A stretch of 43,490 nucleotides of DNA, filler included, from an uncultured virus (IMG/VR IMGVR_UViG_2576861727_000003) (2 parts of one record of this genome joined end to end with filler, not necessarily neighbours in it), one strand, 5' to 3'. Positions 23,339 to 40,285 are shown, counted from the whole stretch's first letter. A program made the numbers and translations. The notes: generated from the sequence alone by a model not told the origin.

Positions 23339-23584
23339 ATGAATAGTGAGAAGATATATGCGAAGATAATGATTAATCTTCATGGCAATGTTAAAGCCAT
23401 TAAGGATTTCGTAAATCTTTCATCCAAGTATAACGATATTGAGGTTAGAAGTGGCAGATATATAGTAGACCCTAAATCTCTGTTTGGTATACTTTCGCTT
23501 GATTTGGATATGCCATTCGGCTTTTTCTACCCAGTAGAAGTAGAAGAAGAGATAAAGCGTGATTTTAGCAAGTGGGCAGTATAA
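23339..23584 (+). CDS. HPr-family phosphocarrier-like protein
   Basis: IKDFVN...DIEVRSGRYIVDPKSLFGILSLDL matches the HPr Ser46 region (VDAKSIMG); RBS AGGAGG. Confidence 0.8.
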   Translation: MNSEKIYAKIMINLHGNVKAIKDFVNLSSKYNDIEVRSGRYIVDPKSLFGILSLDLDMPFGFFYPVEVEEEIKRDFSKWAV

Positions 23585-23601
23585 AAAAAGGAGATAACAA
23601 A

Positions 23602-24126
23602 ATGGGATTTTCAGAACAAATAAAGTCAAGTGTAAACGGCGATGAATACTATACCCCTCAGAATGCGGTAGATATGATACTACCGTATCTCGCAAGAAGA
23701 GGATATCAAAATATCTGGTGTCCGTTTGACAAAGAAGAGAGTAATTTCGTTAAAACACTGAAAGCACAAGGCTACAATGTTGCTTATGGTCATATAGAGA
23801 CTGGACAGGATTTCTTTGAGTTTACTGAACCACAGGGAGATATCATAGTGTCAAACCCGCCGTTTAGTAAAAGAGATAGAATTTTGAAAAAGTTATACGA
23901 ATGGGATATTCCATTTGCCTTGATTATGAATTTTAATGGCTTGTTTGATAGTAAAAAGCGAGCAGATATTTTTCGTGAGCATAGAGTCGAAATGTTAATC
24001 CCTCGTGGACGAATGAAGTTTGTTCATAAAGATAAGGGTCAGTTAAATAGCCCAAATTTTCAGAGTATTTACATATGCAATCATCTGTTAGAAAATCAGA
24101 TAGTTTTTGATAATACAACATTTTAA
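23602..24126 (+). CDS. Small phage adenine-specific methyltransferase-like protein
   Basis: DEYYTP, IWCPFD, GQDFF, VSNPPFS; ATG 23602. Confidence 0.8.
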   Translation: MGFSEQIKSSVNGDEYYTPQNAVDMILPYLARRGYQNIWCPFDKEESNFVKTLKAQGYNVAYGHIETGQDFFEFTEPQGDIIVSNPPFSKRDRILKKLYEWDIPFALIMNFNGLFDSKKRADIFREHRVEMLIPRGRMKFVHKDKGQLNSPNFQSIYICNHLLENQIVFDNTTF

Positions 24127-24332: not shown

Positions 24333-25097
24333 ATAAAGTATCAAGGAAGTAAATCTCGTATTGCAAAGTATATTATTCCGATTATACAGGAATGTATAGA
24401 CGATAACGAGATAATAGAATACTATGAACCCTTTGTTGGGGGCGCTAACGTAATTGATAAGATAGTTTGCGAGAATAGGTTCGGCTCTGATAGTAATAAG
24501 TACCTGATTGCTCTGCTCAATCATGTATCACACGGCGGTAATTTATATCCAGATGTTTCAAGAGAATTATATAATTTTGTTCGCTCAAAATACAATGAGG
24601 GCGCTAATGATATCCCCGATTGGTACATGGGAAATATCGGATTTCTCGCAAGTTACAATGGTCGCTGGTTCGACGGCGGTTTCGCTGCCCCTGGTTATGA
24701 GAAGACAAAGAATGGAACTAGATACCGAGATTATTACCAAGAGGCTAAGAGAAACCTCGAAGCCCAAGCTACAAAATTAACGGATGTAACCTTTTCAGTA
24801 AAGGATTATTCAGAGGTAACTCCGCACGGAAGTTTTGTCTATTGTGACCCACCATATGCAAACACCAAGCAGTATAAAAATTCTCGGGATTTTGATTTTG
24901 ATAAATTTTGGGATTACATAAGACAAATAAGTAAAGATAATTTCGTACTCGTTAGTGAACTTAATGCACCTGATGATTTTAATTGTATATGGACTAAAGA
25001 AGTGTCAAGAAGCATTAAAGCTACAGATAAGAGTAAAGCAATCGAAAAACTGTTTACATATAATAAAGGAAAATATGCTCAGATTTATAAGAGGTGA
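24333..25097 (+). CDS. Dam-family (D12 class) DNA adenine methyltransferase, probable ATA start
   Basis: Open frame from 24333: IKYQGSKSRIAKYI...YYEPFVGGANV...VYCDPPY...VLVSE; ORF track shows only the C-terminal part. Confidence 0.88.
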   Translation: MKYQGSKSRIAKYIIPIIQECIDDNEIIEYYEPFVGGANVIDKIVCENRFGSDSNKYLIALLNHVSHGGNLYPDVSRELYNFVRSKYNEGANDIPDWYMGNIGFLASYNGRWFDGGFAAPGYEKTKNGTRYRDYYQEAKRNLEAQATKLTDVTFSVKDYSEVTPHGSFVYCDPPYANTKQYKNSRDFDFDKFWDYIRQISKDNFVLVSELNAPDDFNCIWTKEVSRSIKATDKSKAIEKLFTYNKGKYAQIYKR

Positions 25098-25279: not shown

Positions 25280-26008
25280 TTGCAGTTGTATAATGGCGAT
25301 TGCATTGAAGTAATGAAGACATTGCCCGAAAAAAGCGTAGACTTAATTCTTACCGATCCACCATTCGGAACAACTCAAAATAAATGGGATAGCGTTATCC
25401 CCTTTACAGATTTATGGGGAGAGTACGAAAGGGTCATTAAGGACAATGGTGCAATAGTATTATTTGGACAGGGTTTATTTTCCGACGAATTAGCTTGTTC
25501 AAATAAGAAAATGTTTAGATATAGGCTTGTATGGGAAAAGACTAAGGCGGGCGGATTTCTTAATGCTAGACGTATGCCATTACAGGCACATGAAGACATT
25601 CTTGTTTTTTATAAGAAGTTACCTACATATAACCCACAAATGTCAGAGGGAAGACCGTATGTCAAGAAAGCCGTGTCAAATGGCGACGGAAAGAACTATG
25701 GCAAATTTGATAGAGTGGGACAAATAAATGTTAATGAGGGAACAAGATTTCCTCGTAGCGTTATCAAGTTTTCGAATGATAATCATAATTCGTTACATCC
25801 GACGCAAAAGCCCGTAGACTTACTAGAGTATCTTATAAAAACATATACGAATAAGGGTGACGTAGTTCTGGATTCGTGTATGGGCTCAGGCTCTACTGGA
25901 GTTGCGGCTCTTAATTGCGAAAGGGGGTTTATTGGAATAGAACTAGACCCAAACTATTTTGCTATCGCAGAAAAAAGAATAAACGAAAGAGAGGGTATCT
26001 ATGCATAA
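25280..26008 (+). CDS. DNA N4/N6 methyltransferase (beta class)
   Basis: GDCIE, ILTDPPF, HPTQKPVDLL, VLDSCMGSGSTG, FIGIELD. Confidence 0.93.
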   Translation: MQLYNGDCIEVMKTLPEKSVDLILTDPPFGTTQNKWDSVIPFTDLWGEYERVIKDNGAIVLFGQGLFSDELACSNKKMFRYRLVWEKTKAGGFLNARRMPLQAHEDILVFYKKLPTYNPQMSEGRPYVKKAVSNGDGKNYGKFDRVGQINVNEGTRFPRSVIKFSNDNHNSLHPTQKPVDLLEYLIKTYTNKGDVVLDSCMGSGSTGVAALNCERGFIGIELDPNYFAIAEKRINEREGIYA

Positions 26009-32903: not shown

Positions 32904-33127
32904 TGAATATATCGGCGCCGAGGTTTTTGACATCTGAAACCGAATTGGTTATGGGAGCAAAAGGACTACTTGATTTGATAAGAGTTCTTATTAAATACTC
33001 AAAAAAATATTGCGAGTTTAAGATACGGGTAAATGAATGATTATGATGAAAGAAATAATTGGTGCCGCCGCTGGTATTGGGATTTGCGCAATTCTGGCGG
33101 CGATTGATTTAATAAAAGACAAGAAGG

Positions 33128-36100
33128 GTGATGGCAATGATAAATAGTGTCTGTAAATGTGATGGTTCAATCACCGAGTTTGATGATAAGAAGATTTATG
33201 CGGCGATCTCGTATGCTTATTCGGATGTATACGGAGAGTTGTCTGAGGAAAAAGAGGAAGAAATTGAGCAAATAACAGACGATGTTGTTGATACAATTAA
33301 TTTCTTTAATGATACTATTCATGTTGAAACTATACAGGATATTATTGAGAATAGGCTAATGGAAAGCAGTAGAAAGGATGTCGCCAGAGCATTCATTCTA
33401 TATCGTAATGAGAGAACAAGAGTGAGAGAAAGAAACAGTCGGATTATTCAGGCTGTAATGAATAGAGCAAATCCCAACACTCGAAACGACAGGTCAAATG
33501 CAAATGTTAATGAACGGTCTTTTTCTGGCAGAGAGAAAGAGGCTTCTGCAACGATAGGAAAGATGATTGCTTTAGATTACGGCGGTTTATCAGAAGAAGT
33601 TGCAAAAGCCCACAAGGATATGTTGGTGTATCAGCACGACCTCGAAAAAGCCATTTATGGTGTACATAACTGCCTAAACTTAAACTTTCAAGAAATCTTT
33701 ACTCATGGGTTCAAGACAAGAAACGGAGATGTTAGACCGCCTACATCATTTAGTACAGCCTGTCAGTTATACGCCGTAGCTTTTCAGTGTCAAAGTCAAG
33801 TTCAGTTCGGCGGGGTAGGAAGTATCCACACTGATATTGATTTAGCGCCTTTTGTTAAACTTAGTTTCTATAAGCATTATGCAGACGGATGTAAATATAT
33901 AGGTCATTTAGATAAAGACAATATTGATAAGAAAATTTCATACGCAAAACAGCATTCACTTTCTATAGAAGACGATTATTTCAAACAGGATAATGAGATA
34001 TATATTTATGCTATTGATATGCTTAATAAAGAAGGATTGCAGTCTGCACAAGGTTTATATCATAACTTGAACACACTTGAATCCAGACAGGGTTCTCAGG
34101 TTCCATTTACCTCAATTAATTTTGGCAGAGATAAAAGCGCCGAAGGCAGAAAAGTCAGCGAATGGTTGATGGCGGCAAGCCTTGATGGTATTGGAAAGCA
34201 TCATTTAACGAGTATATTTCCTATTGGCATCTTCCAATATAAAGAGGGTTGTAACGCCAATCCTGGAGATAAAAACTATGACCTTAAACAACTAGCTCTT
34301 AAATCCATGAGTAAACGTATTTATCCTAACTGGTGCAATTGCAACTACTCACAGGCTCACGAAGATGAAAATAACCCCGATACATATTTTGCAACTATGG
34401 GAGCATTAGCGGGGCATGAGCACTTGTATATTAAAAAAGGAAATGGTACACCTATTGATATGTCTATTAAGGAGTTCTTTGAAACCATAAAAACCAAAGA
34501 GGATATTAAAGGACGAGCTATGCAATTGTATTACAACAAATCGCCATTAGATATTCCTACCGATATAAATTGGAGACACAAACAGATCAAATCAAATTCT
34601 GGAATAAAAGCTCTATCAGGTGTATATAAAATCACTTATATCCCACAAGACGTATCTTACATAGGCTCATCAAAAAATATTCAACAAAGAGTTCGTGACC
34701 ATAAAAAAGACATTCGTCATACAGGCGGACTTGATTGTGGTTTATTCTTTGGCGATGCTAATATAGATAATTACTCTTTTGAAGTGATTGAGTATACGGA
34801 CGATTATAAAGATGCGGAGAAAAAGTATATCCAACTCATTCCCAACGCTAATTACAAGGGAACATCATCAAAATTTTATAAGAACGTCGGCATCACAAAA
34901 GGTAGAGGCAGCGATACTCGTCCTAATATTGTAATGAATCCCAATATTCCCCAAGAGTATATCTCGTTAGAGGATTTTGATTACAAGGTATTAGATAGGA
35001 ATAATCAGTGGGTAAAAATTAAACATATCTTCAAAAACGATAAAATGAACACTCCTTTAATGATGCACATTACTTACCGTGAAAATGATAAAGTTTATAC
35101 TTTGTGTTGTACAGAAGACCATCCGTTGTGGAACGGTGAACGTTTTGTGCGAGCTGATAATTTTAAGGTTGGTGATTATCTGTATAGGGCTGATGAATTA
35201 GCTCTTGAAGTTGTAGAGATTAAATACCACACCGATAGGGTTGATAGTTATGATATCGGCACTGAAACAGGTAGTTTCATTGGTAGCGATATTATAATGC
35301 ACAATTGTCGTACAATGGTAGGGTATGATAGAAACGGTCTTGGATACATAAGACAAGGTAGAGGCAATAATGTCCCCAATACAATTATTCTTCCTAATCT
35401 TGGTATTAGGTATGGAATATGTTTGGGTGATAGAACAGAGCCCGACCTTGATGGTTTCTGGAATGCTTTTGAAGACACATTAAAACTTACCGAGAAGGGA
35501 TTACTTGAGAGATTTGCCATTATGGTACAGCAGAAGCCAACGGCAGCTCCCTTTATGTATCAGAATAATACAATACAAGACGCAAGAAAGTGTAAAGATA
35601 ACGTTTATGAATCGTTAAAACACAATACGCTTGCTATTGGATACATCGGCATAGCTGAGATGTGTCAGGCATTATTTGGAGAAAATCATGTACATAGTAA
35701 AAGAGCTCACGATTTTGCCTTGTCTGTTGTTAAGAGAATATATGATTATGCAATAGAAGCATCTGAAAGAAATGGATTGAATTTTTCATGCTACGCGACT
35801 CCCGCCGAATCCCTTTGTCGTACTGCTTTAGTAAGTCTTAGGGAACAGTACGGAATCATAGATGGCGTAACTTCTCATGAATATTTAACGAATTCACACC
35901 ATGTTCCAGTATGGGAAAAAGTAAGTATATTTGAAAAACTTGAATGTGAAGCACCGTTCTGTAAATATCCTACTGGTGGTAACATTACATATGTTGAACT
36001 CGATAGCACGTTTGTAAAGAACACTAAGGCAGTTGAGTCCATTATAGATTATGCATTTAAAGTGTTGGATATTCCATATTTAGCATTTAATTTCCCAATA

Positions 36101-36277
36101 GATAATTGTTTAGACTGTGGTTATCAAGGAGAATTTAACGACTGTTGCCCTGAATGCGGAAGCAAAAACATTCAACAGTTAAGACGAGTAACAGGATATC
36201 TGACAACTGATTGGCATAACTTCAACGATGGTAAGCAGTCAGAAGTACAGGAGAGAGTAAAACATGAGATATGCTAA
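33128..36277 (+). CDS. nrdD: Anaerobic (class III) ribonucleoside-triphosphate reductase with ATP-cone, containing an intein
   Basis: ATP-cone N-terminus, QVPFTSINFG, ATMG|CRT, YATPAESLC, YLTNSHH, CxxC..CxxC, RRVTGYL glycyl-radical motif. Confidence 0.96.
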   Translation: MMAMINSVCKCDGSITEFDDKKIYAAISYAYSDVYGELSEEKEEEIEQITDDVVDTINFFNDTIHVETIQDIIENRLMESSRKDVARAFILYRNERTRVRERNSRIIQAVMNRANPNTRNDRSNANVNERSFSGREKEASATIGKMIALDYGGLSEEVAKAHKDMLVYQHDLEKAIYGVHNCLNLNFQEIFTHGFKTRNGDVRPPTSFSTACQLYAVAFQCQSQVQFGGVGSIHTDIDLAPFVKLSFYKHYADGCKYIGHLDKDNIDKKISYAKQHSLSIEDDYFKQDNEIYIYAIDMLNKEGLQSAQGLYHNLNTLESRQGSQVPFTSINFGRDKSAEGRKVSEWLMAASLDGIGKHHLTSIFPIGIFQYKEGCNANPGDKNYDLKQLALKSMSKRIYPNWCNCNYSQAHEDENNPDTYFATMGALAGHEHLYIKKGNGTPIDMSIKEFFETIKTKEDIKGRAMQLYYNKSPLDIPTDINWRHKQIKSNSGIKALSGVYKITYIPQDVSYIGSSKNIQQRVRDHKKDIRHTGGLDCGLFFGDANIDNYSFEVIEYTDDYKDAEKKYIQLIPNANYKGTSSKFYKNVGITKGRGSDTRPNIVMNPNIPQEYISLEDFDYKVLDRNNQWVKIKHIFKNDKMNTPLMMHITYRENDKVYTLCCTEDHPLWNGERFVRADNFKVGDYLYRADELALEVVEIKYHTDRVDSYDIGTETGSFIGSDIIMHNCRTMVGYDRNGLGYIRQGRGNNVPNTIILPNLGIRYGICLGDRTEPDLDGFWNAFEDTLKLTEKGLLERFAIMVQQKPTAAPFMYQNNTIQDARKCKDNVYESLKHNTLAIGYIGIAEMCQALFGENHVHSKRAHDFALSVVKRIYDYAIEASERNGLNFSCYATPAESLCRTALVSLREQYGIIDGVTSHEYLTNSHHVPVWEKVSIFEKLECEAPFCKYPTGGNITYVELDSTFVKNTKAVESIIDYAFKVLDIPYLAFNFPIDNCLDCGYQGEFNDCCPECGSKNIQQLRRVTGYLTTDWHNFNDGKQSEVQERVKHEIC
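34403..35305 (+). mobile_element. Intein (301 aa) in nrdD; Ala at position 1; contains a GIY-YIG domain
   Basis: Interrupts ATMG/CRT; block A ALAGHEHLYI, block B CTEDHPLW, blocks F/G SYDIGTETGSFIGSDIIMHN followed by Cys+1. Confidence 0.92.
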
Positions 36278-36830
36278 TATAGATAATTGTGAGATAGTTA
36301 ACGGTGAAGACATTGGCGCAACCCTGTATGTGCAGGGTTGTCACCGCCATTGTAAAAACTGTTTTAATCCCGAAACATGGGATTTTAATGGCGGCAAAGA
36401 ATGGAACGATGAAGTAAAAAATCAGTTCCTTGCACTGATTGATAGACCATATATAAAGAGAGTAACTATTTTGGGCGGAGAACCTTTAGCTTACGAAAAT
36501 CTCCCAGAGGTATATGACCTTGTAAAGACAATCAAAGAAAAATTTCCTGACAAAAAGATATGGCTCTACACAGGATATGAATTAAGTTGTGGTATTAATG
36601 AACGTGGAGATTTAGTTGGTGATTTTGCCAACGCTGATATTGGATGGGATAATGGTCTTTTAAGTAATCATATAGTCAGGGCTTGTGATGTTGTAGTCGA
36701 TGGTGATTTTAGAGACGAACTCAAAGATTATACTTTACAATTTCGTGGCAGCTCTAATCAGCGGCTTATTGATGTGCAAAAAACCATATCACAAGGACAA
36801 ATAGTTCTGTGGGGTGAACATAATGACTAA
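36264..36830 (+). CDS. nrdG: Anaerobic RNR activating enzyme (radical SAM)
   Basis: GC.RHCKNCFNPETWDF, LGGEPL, IWLYTGY, FRGSSNQR. Confidence 0.95.
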   Translation: MRYANIDNCEIVNGEDIGATLYVQGCHRHCKNCFNPETWDFNGGKEWNDEVKNQFLALIDRPYIKRVTILGGEPLAYENLPEVYDLVKTIKEKFPDKKIWLYTGYELSCGINERGDLVGDFANADIGWDNGLLSNHIVRACDVVVDGDFRDELKDYTLQFRGSSNQRLIDVQKTISQGQIVLWGEHND

Positions 36831-37358: not shown

Positions 37359-37900
37359 AGTTTTATATAAGTGACCTACACATCGGTCATAAGAACGCCA
37401 TCGGTTTTGACGAACGACCGTTCTGGAATGTTGAAGAACAGAACGAGGAAATAATAAAGCGTTGGAATGAAGTCGTTACAAAAAATGATGACGTATATAT
37501 CCTTGGTGATTTTGCGTGGAAGAATGACATGGGACTTGAGGTAATACGTCAGCTTAAAGGGCGAAAATATTTGATTTGTGGAAATCATGATAAATTAAAT
37601 GCTGAACTATACAAACAGTTTGAGTGGGTTAAAGATTATGCCGAAATCAAGGATGATGGCGAAAACCTTGTGCTGTGTCATTATCCTATAGCACATTGGA
37701 AGAACGCTGATTATGGTACAATACTTCTTTATGGTCATATACACGGAGAAACTGGAAGAGATAATAGACCATTTGCGGAATACAAAGAAGCCATGAAAAA
37801 CCGCGGGATTCCATATCGGTGTTATAATGTCGGTTGTATGCTTCCTTATATGAACTATCAACCCCGCACACTCAAATACATTCTAGAAAATGCTATATAA
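37355..37900 (+). CDS. Calcineurin-like metallophosphoesterase (phage type)
   Basis: SDLHIGH, LGDF, GNHD, LCHYP, YGHIH, NVG. Confidence 0.9.
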   Translation: MKFYISDLHIGHKNAIGFDERPFWNVEEQNEEIIKRWNEVVTKNDDVYILGDFAWKNDMGLEVIRQLKGRKYLICGNHDKLNAELYKQFEWVKDYAEIKDDGENLVLCHYPIAHWKNADYGTILLYGHIHGETGRDNRPFAEYKEAMKNRGIPYRCYNVGCMLPYMNYQPRTLKYILENAI

Positions 37901-39481: not shown

Positions 39482-40285
39482 ATGGATTCTTCAATGATAG
39501 ACATACTCCAATCCAAAGCCCCAGATTTAATAGTAGACGGCGTTGAGCTTTACGAAGTTCACCCGTCTCTCGGGCTTTTGCCTGGAAAATATTTTGTTTC
39601 GAGAGATGGACAAGTTTATTCCATCGCTATACATAGATTTCTTAGCGGTACTTCTGATAAGGACGGTTATCAGGTAATGAACCTTAAACGTGCAGACCAC
39701 AGACGCGGCTTAAAAACAGCCGTAGCAAAAGTTGTCTTATGGACTTTCAGAGGTGCGCCGCCCGAGGATATGAAAGTGCCGACGTGTGAACATATAGACG
39801 GCAATCGTACAAACAATAACATTAAAAATCTTAAATGGCTTGAACGTTCAATTAATTGTTCCGTTAGAGTAAATACATTACGTGGTGAAGCTTGTAGGAA
39901 TTCAGTTCTTACCGAGCCACAGGTACATGAAATATGCCGACTTTTGACAATGACAAAGATGTCATATCGTAAAATTGCGCTTAGATTTGGTGTTTCAATT
40001 TACACTATTGTAGATATTCATGACCGTCGTTCTTGGAATCATATTGGTAAAGATTATGATTTTGACCAGAGGAACCGTTTAAAGACAGACCCGCGACTAA
40101 GTGAATATCCAATTATACTTTCGATTAAAGATGTTGAAAAGATACTTAATGTATGTAAAAACACAGTAAAGAAAAAATTGAAATCGAAGCAGATTTACTC
40201 ATACAAGGAAGGTCACTATGTTCGTATTCCTAAAATAGCATTGATTGAATATATGGAACAGAAAGGAATAAAAGTAGATAAATGA
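39482..40285 (+). CDS. HNH homing-endonuclease-like protein with an HTH and a C-terminal excisionase-like HTH domain
   Basis: YFVSRDGQVYS, DKDGY, EHIDGNRTNNNIKNLKW; SYRKIALRFGVS; YPIILSIKDVEKILNV...VRIPKIALIEYM. Confidence 0.8.
   Translation: MDSSMIDILQSKAPDLIVDGVELYEVHPSLGLLPGKYFVSRDGQVYSIAIHRFLSGTSDKDGYQVMNLKRADHRRGLKTAVAKVVLWTFRGAPPEDMKVPTCEHIDGNRTNNNIKNLKWLERSINCSVRVNTLRGEACRNSVLTEPQVHEICRLLTMTKMSYRKIALRFGVSIYTIVDIHDRRSWNHIGKDYDFDQRNRLKTDPRLSEYPIILSIKDVEKILNVCKNTVKKKLKSKQIYSYKEGHYVRIPKIALIEYMEQKGIKVDK

Follow-up and report, generated by a model that had tools for sequence, protein, structure and literature searches.

A conserved family of NrdD inteins with a GIY-YIG nuclease domain ahead of block B

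Introduction

Can a GIY-YIG nuclease sit in frame within one contiguous intein, and does such an intein move? The question is raised by a 43,490-nucleotide stretch of DNA (filler included) from an uncultured virus (IMG/VR IMGVR_UViG_2576861727_000003), hereafter called the window, in which nrdD, the gene for a class III (anaerobic) ribonucleotide reductase, carries an in-frame insert between the codons for Met-Gly and Cys-Arg (the MG/CR site). A first-pass annotation had read positions 34610..34860 as a GIY-YIG endonuclease domain inside an intein, at a non-canonical position, and had ascribed it to an independent invasion of a mini-intein. We find that the insert is a real and conserved intein, apparently mobile, in which known parts are combined in a new way.

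In the accessible part of a 2006 source, GIY-YIG enzymes are found within group I introns but not inside inteins (PMC1564403). Dassa et al. (2009; PMC2677866) state that inteins are not known to contain them and place the known endonuclease domains between motifs N4 and C2. A free-standing GIY-YIG gene is described in a split class 3 locus, AceL NrdHF (PMC7891396).

An intein at the MG/CR site of NrdD

The gene and the parts of the insert are as follows (window coordinates, all on the plus strand).

33137..36277, plus strand: nrdD, class III (anaerobic) ribonucleotide reductase precursor, 1046 amino acids including the intein (Pfam NRDD, ATP-cone and Gly_radical; TIGR02487 above cut-off; catalogued protein of 1046 amino acids)
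34403..35305, plus strand: intein, 301 amino acids, Ala1 to His300-Asn301, at MG/CR (junction restored in empty alleles P0123/P0124; Hint fold over residues 1–301)
34403..34492, plus strand: Hint N-terminal part, block A (Ala1) and helix 1, residues 1–30 (model strands 7–12 and 18–21, helix 22–30; aligns to the N-termini of same-site minis)
34493..34612, plus strand: N-terminal linker of the insert, residues 31–70, variable and net basic (0/40 columns at least 95% conserved; mean net charge +2.6; R38 in 110/118)
34613..34861, plus strand: GIY-YIG nuclease domain, residues 71–153, with G73, Y75, Y86, G88, R96, H100, E139 and N150 (PF01541; I-TevI fold match; eight core residues together in 111/118)
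34862..34948, plus strand: C-terminal linker of the insert, residues 154–182, basic, with conserved K-[YF]-Y-K and R-P motifs (mean net charge +4.2; Y159 in 110, K160 in 116 and P174 in 117 of 118)
34949..35305, plus strand: Hint C-terminal part, residues 183–301, with block B T237/H240 (35111–35122), block F D284 (35252) and block G M299-H300-N301 (T237, H240, D284, H300 and N301 in 118/118; the Cat C-fragment, 6dsl_B, aligns)
35306..35308, plus strand: Cys+1 of the C-extein (Cys in 118/118)

The nrdD frame is open from 33128 to 36277; the open reading frame (ORF) is listed from a GTG at 33128, and the ATG at 33137 is the likely start. The insert is preceded by TMG and followed by CRT, with His-Asn directly before the Cys. 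Removal of 34403–35305 gives NPDTYFATMG-CRTMVGYDRN, the sequence found across the same point in the empty alleles P0123 and P0124. These proteins of 745 amino acids are exactly without the insert and are otherwise 96–97% (N-extein) and 99% (C-extein) identical to the window. The MGCRT motif aligns with the loop of Prevotella copri NrdD (PDB entry 8p23) that holds Cys416 (residue match counted by hand), described as the radical initiator in the accessible part of PMC11226230. By this alignment, Cys+1 is both the predicted splicing nucleophile and the radical-initiator cysteine of NrdD, a dual role that would make exact splicing a need of the enzyme itself.

An AlphaFold2 model of the intein (88-row alignment) has a Hint fold, with a predicted local distance difference test score (pLDDT) of 92.4 and a predicted template-modelling score (pTM) of 0.87. 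Its best Hint structural match extends over residues 1–301 (Z = 18.9, root-mean-square deviation [rmsd] 2.0, 146 residues aligned), and Foldseek matches it to the NrdJ-1 intein with E = 3e-8. The Pfam Hint and intein sequence models score below their cut-offs, and what identifies the insert as an intein is therefore its fold together with the junctions and the empty alleles. The insert is in frame, is missing from close homologs and lies at a conserved site before a Cys, and blocks B (TxxH), F (Asp) and G (His-Asn) are present.

The GIY-YIG domain precedes block B

The motifs quoted in the first-pass annotation are all present: G73-V74-Y75 (34619), Y86-I87-G88 (34658), R96 (34688), H100, E139 (34817) and N150 (34850). 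Pfam GIY-YIG (PF01541) matches intein residues 73–145 with 32.3 bits (cut-off 22.6; E = 1.2e-7), so that of the domain searches suggested at the time the one for the nuclease succeeds and the one for Hint falls short. NCBIfam TIGR01453 matches with E = 1.6e-10, yet under its whole-protein cut-off. Residues 71–153 of the model superpose on the catalytic domain of I-TevI (PDB entry 1ln0) with Z = 9.1 and rmsd 2.4 for 82/92 residues. The domain thus has the GIY and YIG motifs, the central Arg, the C-terminal Glu and the fold of the GIY-YIG superfamily, and the structural check bears out both halves of the original assignment.

The position between blocks A and B likewise holds. Compared with mini-inteins at the same site there are about 150 extra residues, and these lie between helix 1 (residue 30) and residue 183, ahead of the block B Thr. 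This Thr is at position 227–243 in 32 rows of the family described below, compared with 88–127 in 18 same-site minis and 73–95 in 26 LAGLIDADG-type rows. From block B to the end there are 64–65 residues in the family, against 64–90 in the minis and 236–288 in the LAGLIDADG-type rows, in agreement with the proposed mini-intein-like stretch from B to F. The insert therefore does not occupy the canonical endonuclease place between blocks B and F. It lies in the loop region where atypically split inteins break, since residues 177–301 of the model align with the C-fragment of Cat.

The layout of I-TevI, with a catalytic domain, a linker and a separate DNA-binding domain, is not that of the intein. 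No NUMOD- or HTH-type module is matched in the insert by Pfam, and just 29 residues separate the nuclease from the Hint C-part. The pTM of the model suggests that the nuclease and Hint domains pack together. The N-terminal linker (residues 31–70) is a candidate DNA-contact element.

A conserved family

The intein was searched against longer proteins, giving 131 matches among 1148 candidates, of which the best 120 were used. The alignment has 118 rows of 280–307 residues, namely 117 full-length copies and the window's own; the window's own record and the N-truncated P0005 and P0066 were left out. The contiguous GIY-YIG intein is thus a conserved family with at least 118 full-length members. In 117 of the 118 rows the host is NrdD and the site MG/CR. 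The remaining copy (P0120, residues 147–439) lies in an SNF2-type helicase at TMG/CGKS, an ectopic jump to a look-alike site; we take CGKS to be part of a Walker A motif.

Intein identity across the family averages 55%. Within the nuclease, G73, V74, Y75 and Y86 are invariant, H100 and E139 are each kept in 117/118 rows, R96 in 116 and N150 in 115, and all eight residues occur together in 111. Columns conserved to at least 95% number 23/83 in the nuclease and 32/119 in the Hint C-part, compared with 0/40 and 2/29 in the two linkers. The contrast between nuclease and linkers indicates that the nuclease is under selection. We also considered whether translation might start internally, at a conserved codon ahead of the nuclease, and rejected this because only 17/118 rows have Met40.

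In DNA, family loci were found in IMG/VR (eight, by an alignment-based scan), in JGI metagenomes (nine full-length among 16) and in GTDB (two, from 28 candidate stretches, both in contigs of metagenome-assembled genomes). An IMG/VR scan with the single protein as query returned no relative, and tblastn of the intein against 50,697 GenBank phage records gave no match at 1e-5. One family member (L015:3001-3891) has TGA at two Trp positions, which points to a phage that reads TGA as Trp.

Splicing class

Residue 1 is Ala in 115/118 rows including the window and Cys in the other three, and the window thus lacks the Cys, Ser or Thr that starts class 1 inteins. This Ala1 start had been overlooked in the first-pass annotation and alters the expected splicing chemistry. 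The class 3 triplet, given in the accessible part of PMC7664689 as a Trp two residues after the block B His, Cys F:4 and Thr G:5, is replaced by L242 (no Trp in any of the 118), D284 (118/118) and M299 (116/118). According to what is accessible of PMC4031507, class 2 splicing needs Thr B:7, His B:10 and Asp F:4, and the class 2 inteins, all of them orthologs of KlbA with a Ser at G:6, go back to a single event. The mechanistic residue set of class 2 is present in the window (Ala1, Cys+1, Thr B:7, His B:10, Asp F:4 and a block F without Cys), and Thr237, His240, Asp284, His300 and Asn301 are invariant in the family. The KlbA signature is not: G:6 is His300 in 118/118 rows and the host is NrdD. 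KlbA is not among the five PDB sequence matches of the intein (E up to 1) and ranks 18th by fold. Since the class 2 residue set is combined with His at G:6 and a different host, and since the nearest kin are Cys1 NrdD inteins, we describe the intein as class-2-like rather than KlbA-family; it probably splices in this way, with an origin separate from that of KlbA. Cys236, next to the block B Thr, is kept in 112/118 rows.

We speculate that Ala1 may help to avoid self-cutting: with a Cys1 codon, the 5' junction of a filled allele would encode Met-Gly-Cys just as the empty target does. The Cys1 members show that Ala1 is not required for this.

Mobility

The distribution is patchy. Among the best 120 of 1261 C-extein relatives, 118 are empty at MG/CR, the other two being the window's own record and P0007. 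Inteins and their hosts have separate histories: the intein of P0278 is identical to that of the window at 292/301 positions (97%) while the exteins are 49% and 44% identical, and this shared identity ends within a few codons of both junctions. P0004 has 85% intein against 46–47% extein identity to the window, and P0005 shows a like pattern. Over 6786 pairs of the 117 NrdD rows, intein and extein identity correlate with a Spearman coefficient of 0.10. The extein positions that are fixed are Met-2, Gly-1 and Cys+1 (118/118) and Arg+2 (117/118). The target is therefore likely to be centred on these codons, and the helicase copy fits such a target.

Four gut metagenome runs from two studies yielded eight intein-only pieces, with 8/1737 bases that differ from the window, and nine extein-only pieces, with 83/2252; short low-identity and junction-spanning pieces were left out of this comparison, and five further pieces are not included. 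No empty-allele joint was found among the contigs of these four runs, which is no evidence either way. No RNA dataset is among the 20 matching runs listed. Patchy presence and lateral spread at one site are the pattern of homing, and judged by these sequences the intein is an element that is apparently still homing.

The allelic series at MG/CR

Same-site nrdD inteins with and without the insert, which the first-pass annotation had proposed to look for, were all found: family copies, minis, LAGLIDADG forms and empty alleles. A Hint C-part profile search returned 28 representatives, of which 18 were read, and an IMG/VR scan with a broader alignment returned 115 relatives, of which 80 were kept and to which two further loci were added. 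There are 55 distinct contiguous same-site inteins, a count that leaves out several contiguous loci missed by the junction parser: 42 with Cys1 and an insert after block B, 12 minis (seven Cys1, five Ala1) and one with Ala1 and a GIY-YIG domain before block B. Of the 42, 39 have a LAGLIDADG-like motif, and all seven that were tested match Pfam LAGLIDADG_3 or Hom_end. Further minis at MG/CR start with Ala1 (L027, 2354–2839, and L112) or Ser1 (L037). The Ala1 mini L027 falls on the LAGLIDADG side of the tree described below, from which it follows that Cys1 was lost more than once at this site.

A second in-frame GIY-YIG subfamily comprises L052, L110, L111, P0256 and P0259 and has Ile or Val at the Cys236 position. 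L048 (= L108; L048:1883-2857) is split: NrdD-N with a 43-residue N-half is followed in the same frame by a fusion of GIY-YIG, C-half and NrdD-C. The halves are separated by a lone TAA stop, placed between the GAGGAGGT ribosome-binding site and the ATG of the fusion. P0263, P0250 and P0255 begin like the L048 fusion, and the P0263 and P0255 clusters have members of equal length on contigs of 15–49 kb; the N-halves of these three were not seen, and L048 is the sole place where the GIY-YIG-type split is visible in DNA. The nuclease is decayed in P0242 and P0248 and lost in the mini P0244. In a 16-sequence test with the window-family nuclease profile, L048, P0263, L052, P0256 and P0259 scored 50–74 bits, P0250 28 and P0255 17. 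L048, P0263 and P0250 have a tail after the nuclease, which we take to resemble the small DNA-binding motifs of free-standing phage endonucleases; the window's family is without it and has the short basic linkers instead.

Other arrangements were noted on the way. The ORFs of P0249, P0251 and P0260 start at the intein C-part, have no nuclease and are likely to be further atypically split NrdD inteins. All nine members of the P0260 cluster have 464 amino acids, on contigs of up to 266 kb, and the scans gave no locus with the N-halves of these three. In L029 (1603–1650, 1773–2429, 2426–3874) and L030 (2339–2386, 2426–3874) an MG/CR intein is naturally split after just 15 residues, with a free-standing HNH-like ORF between the halves in L029 and none in L030. 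P0135 and P0214, close NrdD relatives of a size that could hold the intein, were rejected because they are empty at MG/CR; they carry a different intein of about 300 amino acids at GIHN/C, near the N-terminal active-site cysteine region.

A tree was built from the Hint parts alone, with loci thinned at 85% identity; 32 of its 90 rows are from the family (29 hand-picked from the 118 and three that were found later). A branch with support 100/97 separates all 26 LAGLIDADG-type rows from all 41 rows with a GIY-YIG domain or the decayed remains of one, and the window's family forms a group with 100/100 support at the end of a long branch (2.4). Residue 1 changes at least six times on this tree, with Cys1 members nested within Ala1 members. 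The suggested independent invasion fits this separation, but the element is no one-off: with a family of at least 118 full-length members, a second in-frame subfamily and split relatives, the invasion is old and shared. A single GIY-YIG invasion, in either direction, is compatible with the unrooted tree, and so are both an ancestor that was invaded as a mini-intein and one that lost its LAGLIDADG nuclease later.

Proposed mechanism and alternatives

We consider it probable that the element is a mobile phage intein with class-2-like cis-splicing, whose GIY-YIG domain, once freed, introduces a nick or a break near MG/CR in empty nrdD alleles so that repair copies the intein in; splicing, cutting, target and order of events are all inferred. 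The intein would be translated within NrdD, excise itself and join Gly-1 to the radical-initiator Cys+1. As residue 1 is Ala, Cys+1 would attack the N-terminal junction directly, aided by Thr237, His240 and Asp284, after which Asn301 would cyclise. In the freed intein the GIY-YIG domain, looped out after helix 1, would nick or cut empty nrdD near the Met-Gly-Cys-Arg codons during co-infection or an encounter between prophage and phage, and repair would complete homing. In place of a separate DNA-binding module, positioning of the nuclease probably falls to the Hint scaffold and the basic linkers, and the single active site of the enzyme could make sequential nicks, act within a dimer or serve as a nickase. 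The lineage may have begun with the entry of a free-standing GIY-YIG gene into an NrdD intein, at the loop that follows helix 1. Both in-frame forms and split ones, in which the C-half carries the fused nuclease, would still be alive, and decayed and mini derivatives would complete the homing cycle.

Several points weigh against this account. The family was gathered by likeness to the query and 11/131 matches were left out, so that the conservation figures lean high, and in 7/118 rows a core nuclease residue is missing, some relatives having decayed. The nuclease insert has no recognisable DNA-binding module, on which I-TevI-type enzymes rely (PMC12774661, accessible part), and the near-invariant extein positions are M, G, C and R only, a short site for a homing enzyme. 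G:6 is His where natural class 2 inteins are described with Ser. The extein pieces in the gut runs may stem from empty relatives or from phages other than those of the intein pieces. The Hint tree is unrooted, with a branch of 2.4 to the family and an unsettled bootstrap (0.93), and does not establish a split-then-fused order.

The missing DNA-binding module and the small extein conservation beyond M-G-C-R would also suit an active nuclease that is no homing enzyme for MG/CR and cuts elsewhere in nrdD or in the DNA of competing phages, with the intein spread as a passenger or by ordinary recombination. The split relatives' longer C-terminal tail is absent from the family, so targeting may have changed. 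Such a role is unlikely, as the identity between the window and P0278 stops a few codons from both junctions, as expected for repair from an adjacent cut, and the ectopic helicase copy lies at the same T-M-G/C codons. Homing could also be as proposed with splicing outside the three classes, an internal nucleophile other than Cys F:4 (e.g. Cys236) forming a branched intermediate. The frequent conservation of Cys236 and a G:6 His unlike that of KlbA inteins speak for this, but six of the 118 rows are without Cys236, Ile or Val takes its place in the second Ala1 subfamily, and the class 1 NrdJ-1 intein also has a Cys at this position, which makes it a rather improbable variant.

We give little credence to a nuclease without catalysis that persists as a relic because the Hint domain needs it to fold, or to an Ala1 intein that has lost splicing in a dispensable gene. 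Phages can use the host reductase, and the pTM of 0.87 suggests domain packing. Splicing that depends on a nested nuclease is reported for some inteins in the accessible part of PMC7765530. Against a relic, the catalytic-type Arg96, His100 and Glu139 are kept in 116–117/118 rows, minis without the domain occur in the same clade (P0244, L049, L055), lateral moves are recent, and Ala1 is fixed across inteins averaging 55% identity with the NrdD frames open. An artefact, either a chimeric assembly or an in-frame ORF of a group I intron, has a negligible chance of being the explanation. GIY-YIG genes are typical of group I introns (PMC1564403, as far as accessible) and NCBIfam matches the insert best to a model for group I intron endonucleases, but the frame is open throughout, an Rfam scan of 33000–36500 gave no match at E up to 1, and 117 independent proteins have the same build, which speaks strongly against it. 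Other gut metagenome runs also bridge the 5' junction and most of the nuclease (X1, 34187–34841), the passage from nuclease to C-terminal Hint part (X4, 34644–34949; X2, 34854–35168) and the 3' junction (X2 and X4), although no single bridging piece covers the whole intein stretch.

To the fuller picture that builds on homing and class-2-like splicing we give an even chance of holding in all its parts together. It would make this the first contiguous GIY-YIG intein lineage, placed in a non-canonical loop, with Hint and basic linkers replacing a DNA-binding domain, non-KlbA class-2-like splicing, repeated switching between Cys and Ala, and relatives that show every step from free-standing through split and fused to decayed.

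Genomic context

The window encodes DnaE, DnaB, primase, Sak, ThyX, PhoH, NrdD/NrdG, dUTPase and integrase, a replication and nucleotide-metabolism region, and its source is a large tailed phage or prophage. The catalogued copy of this NrdD is on a contig of 1.5 Mb, which suggests a prophage. The gene that follows nrdD is

36264..36830, plus strand: nrdG, activating enzyme, overlapping the nrdD stop (phrog_626, E = 4e-47)

Close to nrdD/nrdG, the ORF at 37834–38979 matches phrog_12787 (unknown function) and by motif is presumably a cysteine desulfurase. A free-standing NUMOD4/HNH endonuclease gene with C-terminal HTH domains (39482–40285) directly follows the dUTPase gene. Two short ORFs (23572–24126 and 24627–25097) each partially match DNA methyltransferase profiles, possibly as a fragmented methyltransferase, and adjoin an intact N6/N4 methylase (25280–26008). 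The stretch 12701–13678 matches the N-terminal domain of MrpR weakly and below cut-off (E = 0.0013), which we take as a hint of an SPbeta-like temperate phage.

Relation to known systems and implications

Among the closest published parallels are the 'fractured genes' (PMC2677866, PMC7891396), in which phage nucleotide-metabolism genes also combine an intein with a GIY-YIG endonuclease. There the GIY-YIG gene is free-standing between split halves, whereas in the window the nuclease is in frame within one contiguous intein. In the terminase intein of Dassa et al. the break directly follows motif N1, approximately where the window insert lies, and their model predicts an in-frame fusion (steps IIa/IIIa; PMC2677866). 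Atypically split inteins in general (Cat, 6dsl; the Dassa terminase) break in the same tolerant loop region, but the window intein is unsplit and its loop holds a 150-residue nuclease insert. LAGLIDADG inteins at NrdD MG/CR (e.g. Eggerthella phage EL753P1 nrdD, OP172808.1) share the site and a related Hint, and differ in having Cys1, a nuclease between blocks B and F, and a place across the 100/97 branch from the GIY-YIG forms. The class 2 KlbA intein of Methanocaldococcus jannaschii (2jnq) has the same Ala1, Cys+1, Thr B:7, His B:10, Asp F:4 and Asn G:7 (Hint Z = 14.9, 20% identity) but Ser at G:6, where the window intein has His, in addition to its phage NrdD host, Cys1 NrdD nearest relatives and nested Cys1 members. 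I-TevI and I-BmoI of group I introns share the catalytic fold and the GIY, YIG, Arg, His, Glu and Asn residues; they have a separate C-terminal DNA-binding domain, whereas the domain in the window is internal and tethered to Hint at both ends.

No contiguous GIY-YIG intein is reported in the open-access literature searched, a scope outside which lie InBase, most subscription papers and supplements (e.g. the actinophage and Jug-phage preprints). None of PMC8772380, PMC3653736, 10.1101/2025.08.10.669567, PMC7765530, PMC3159444, PMC3384342, PMC8966425 and PMC12774661 describes the build of the window intein in its accessible parts. Priority for a contiguous GIY-YIG intein is thus likely.

Two statements in the literature would need revision: one denies inteins GIY-YIG nucleases and confines intein nucleases to the space between blocks B and F, the other gives class 2 splicing a single origin, in KlbA. 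The compact GIY-YIG enzyme without a DNA-binding domain may be of interest as a tool, as may Ala1 inteins that tolerate a large insert at an atypical split site. The MG/CR site offers matched natural series, closely related inteins with Cys1 or Ala1 on the one hand and a single nuclease insertion in split, fused, decayed and mini form on the other, in which splicing without the first nucleophile and the way in which inteins gain new nucleases become testable.

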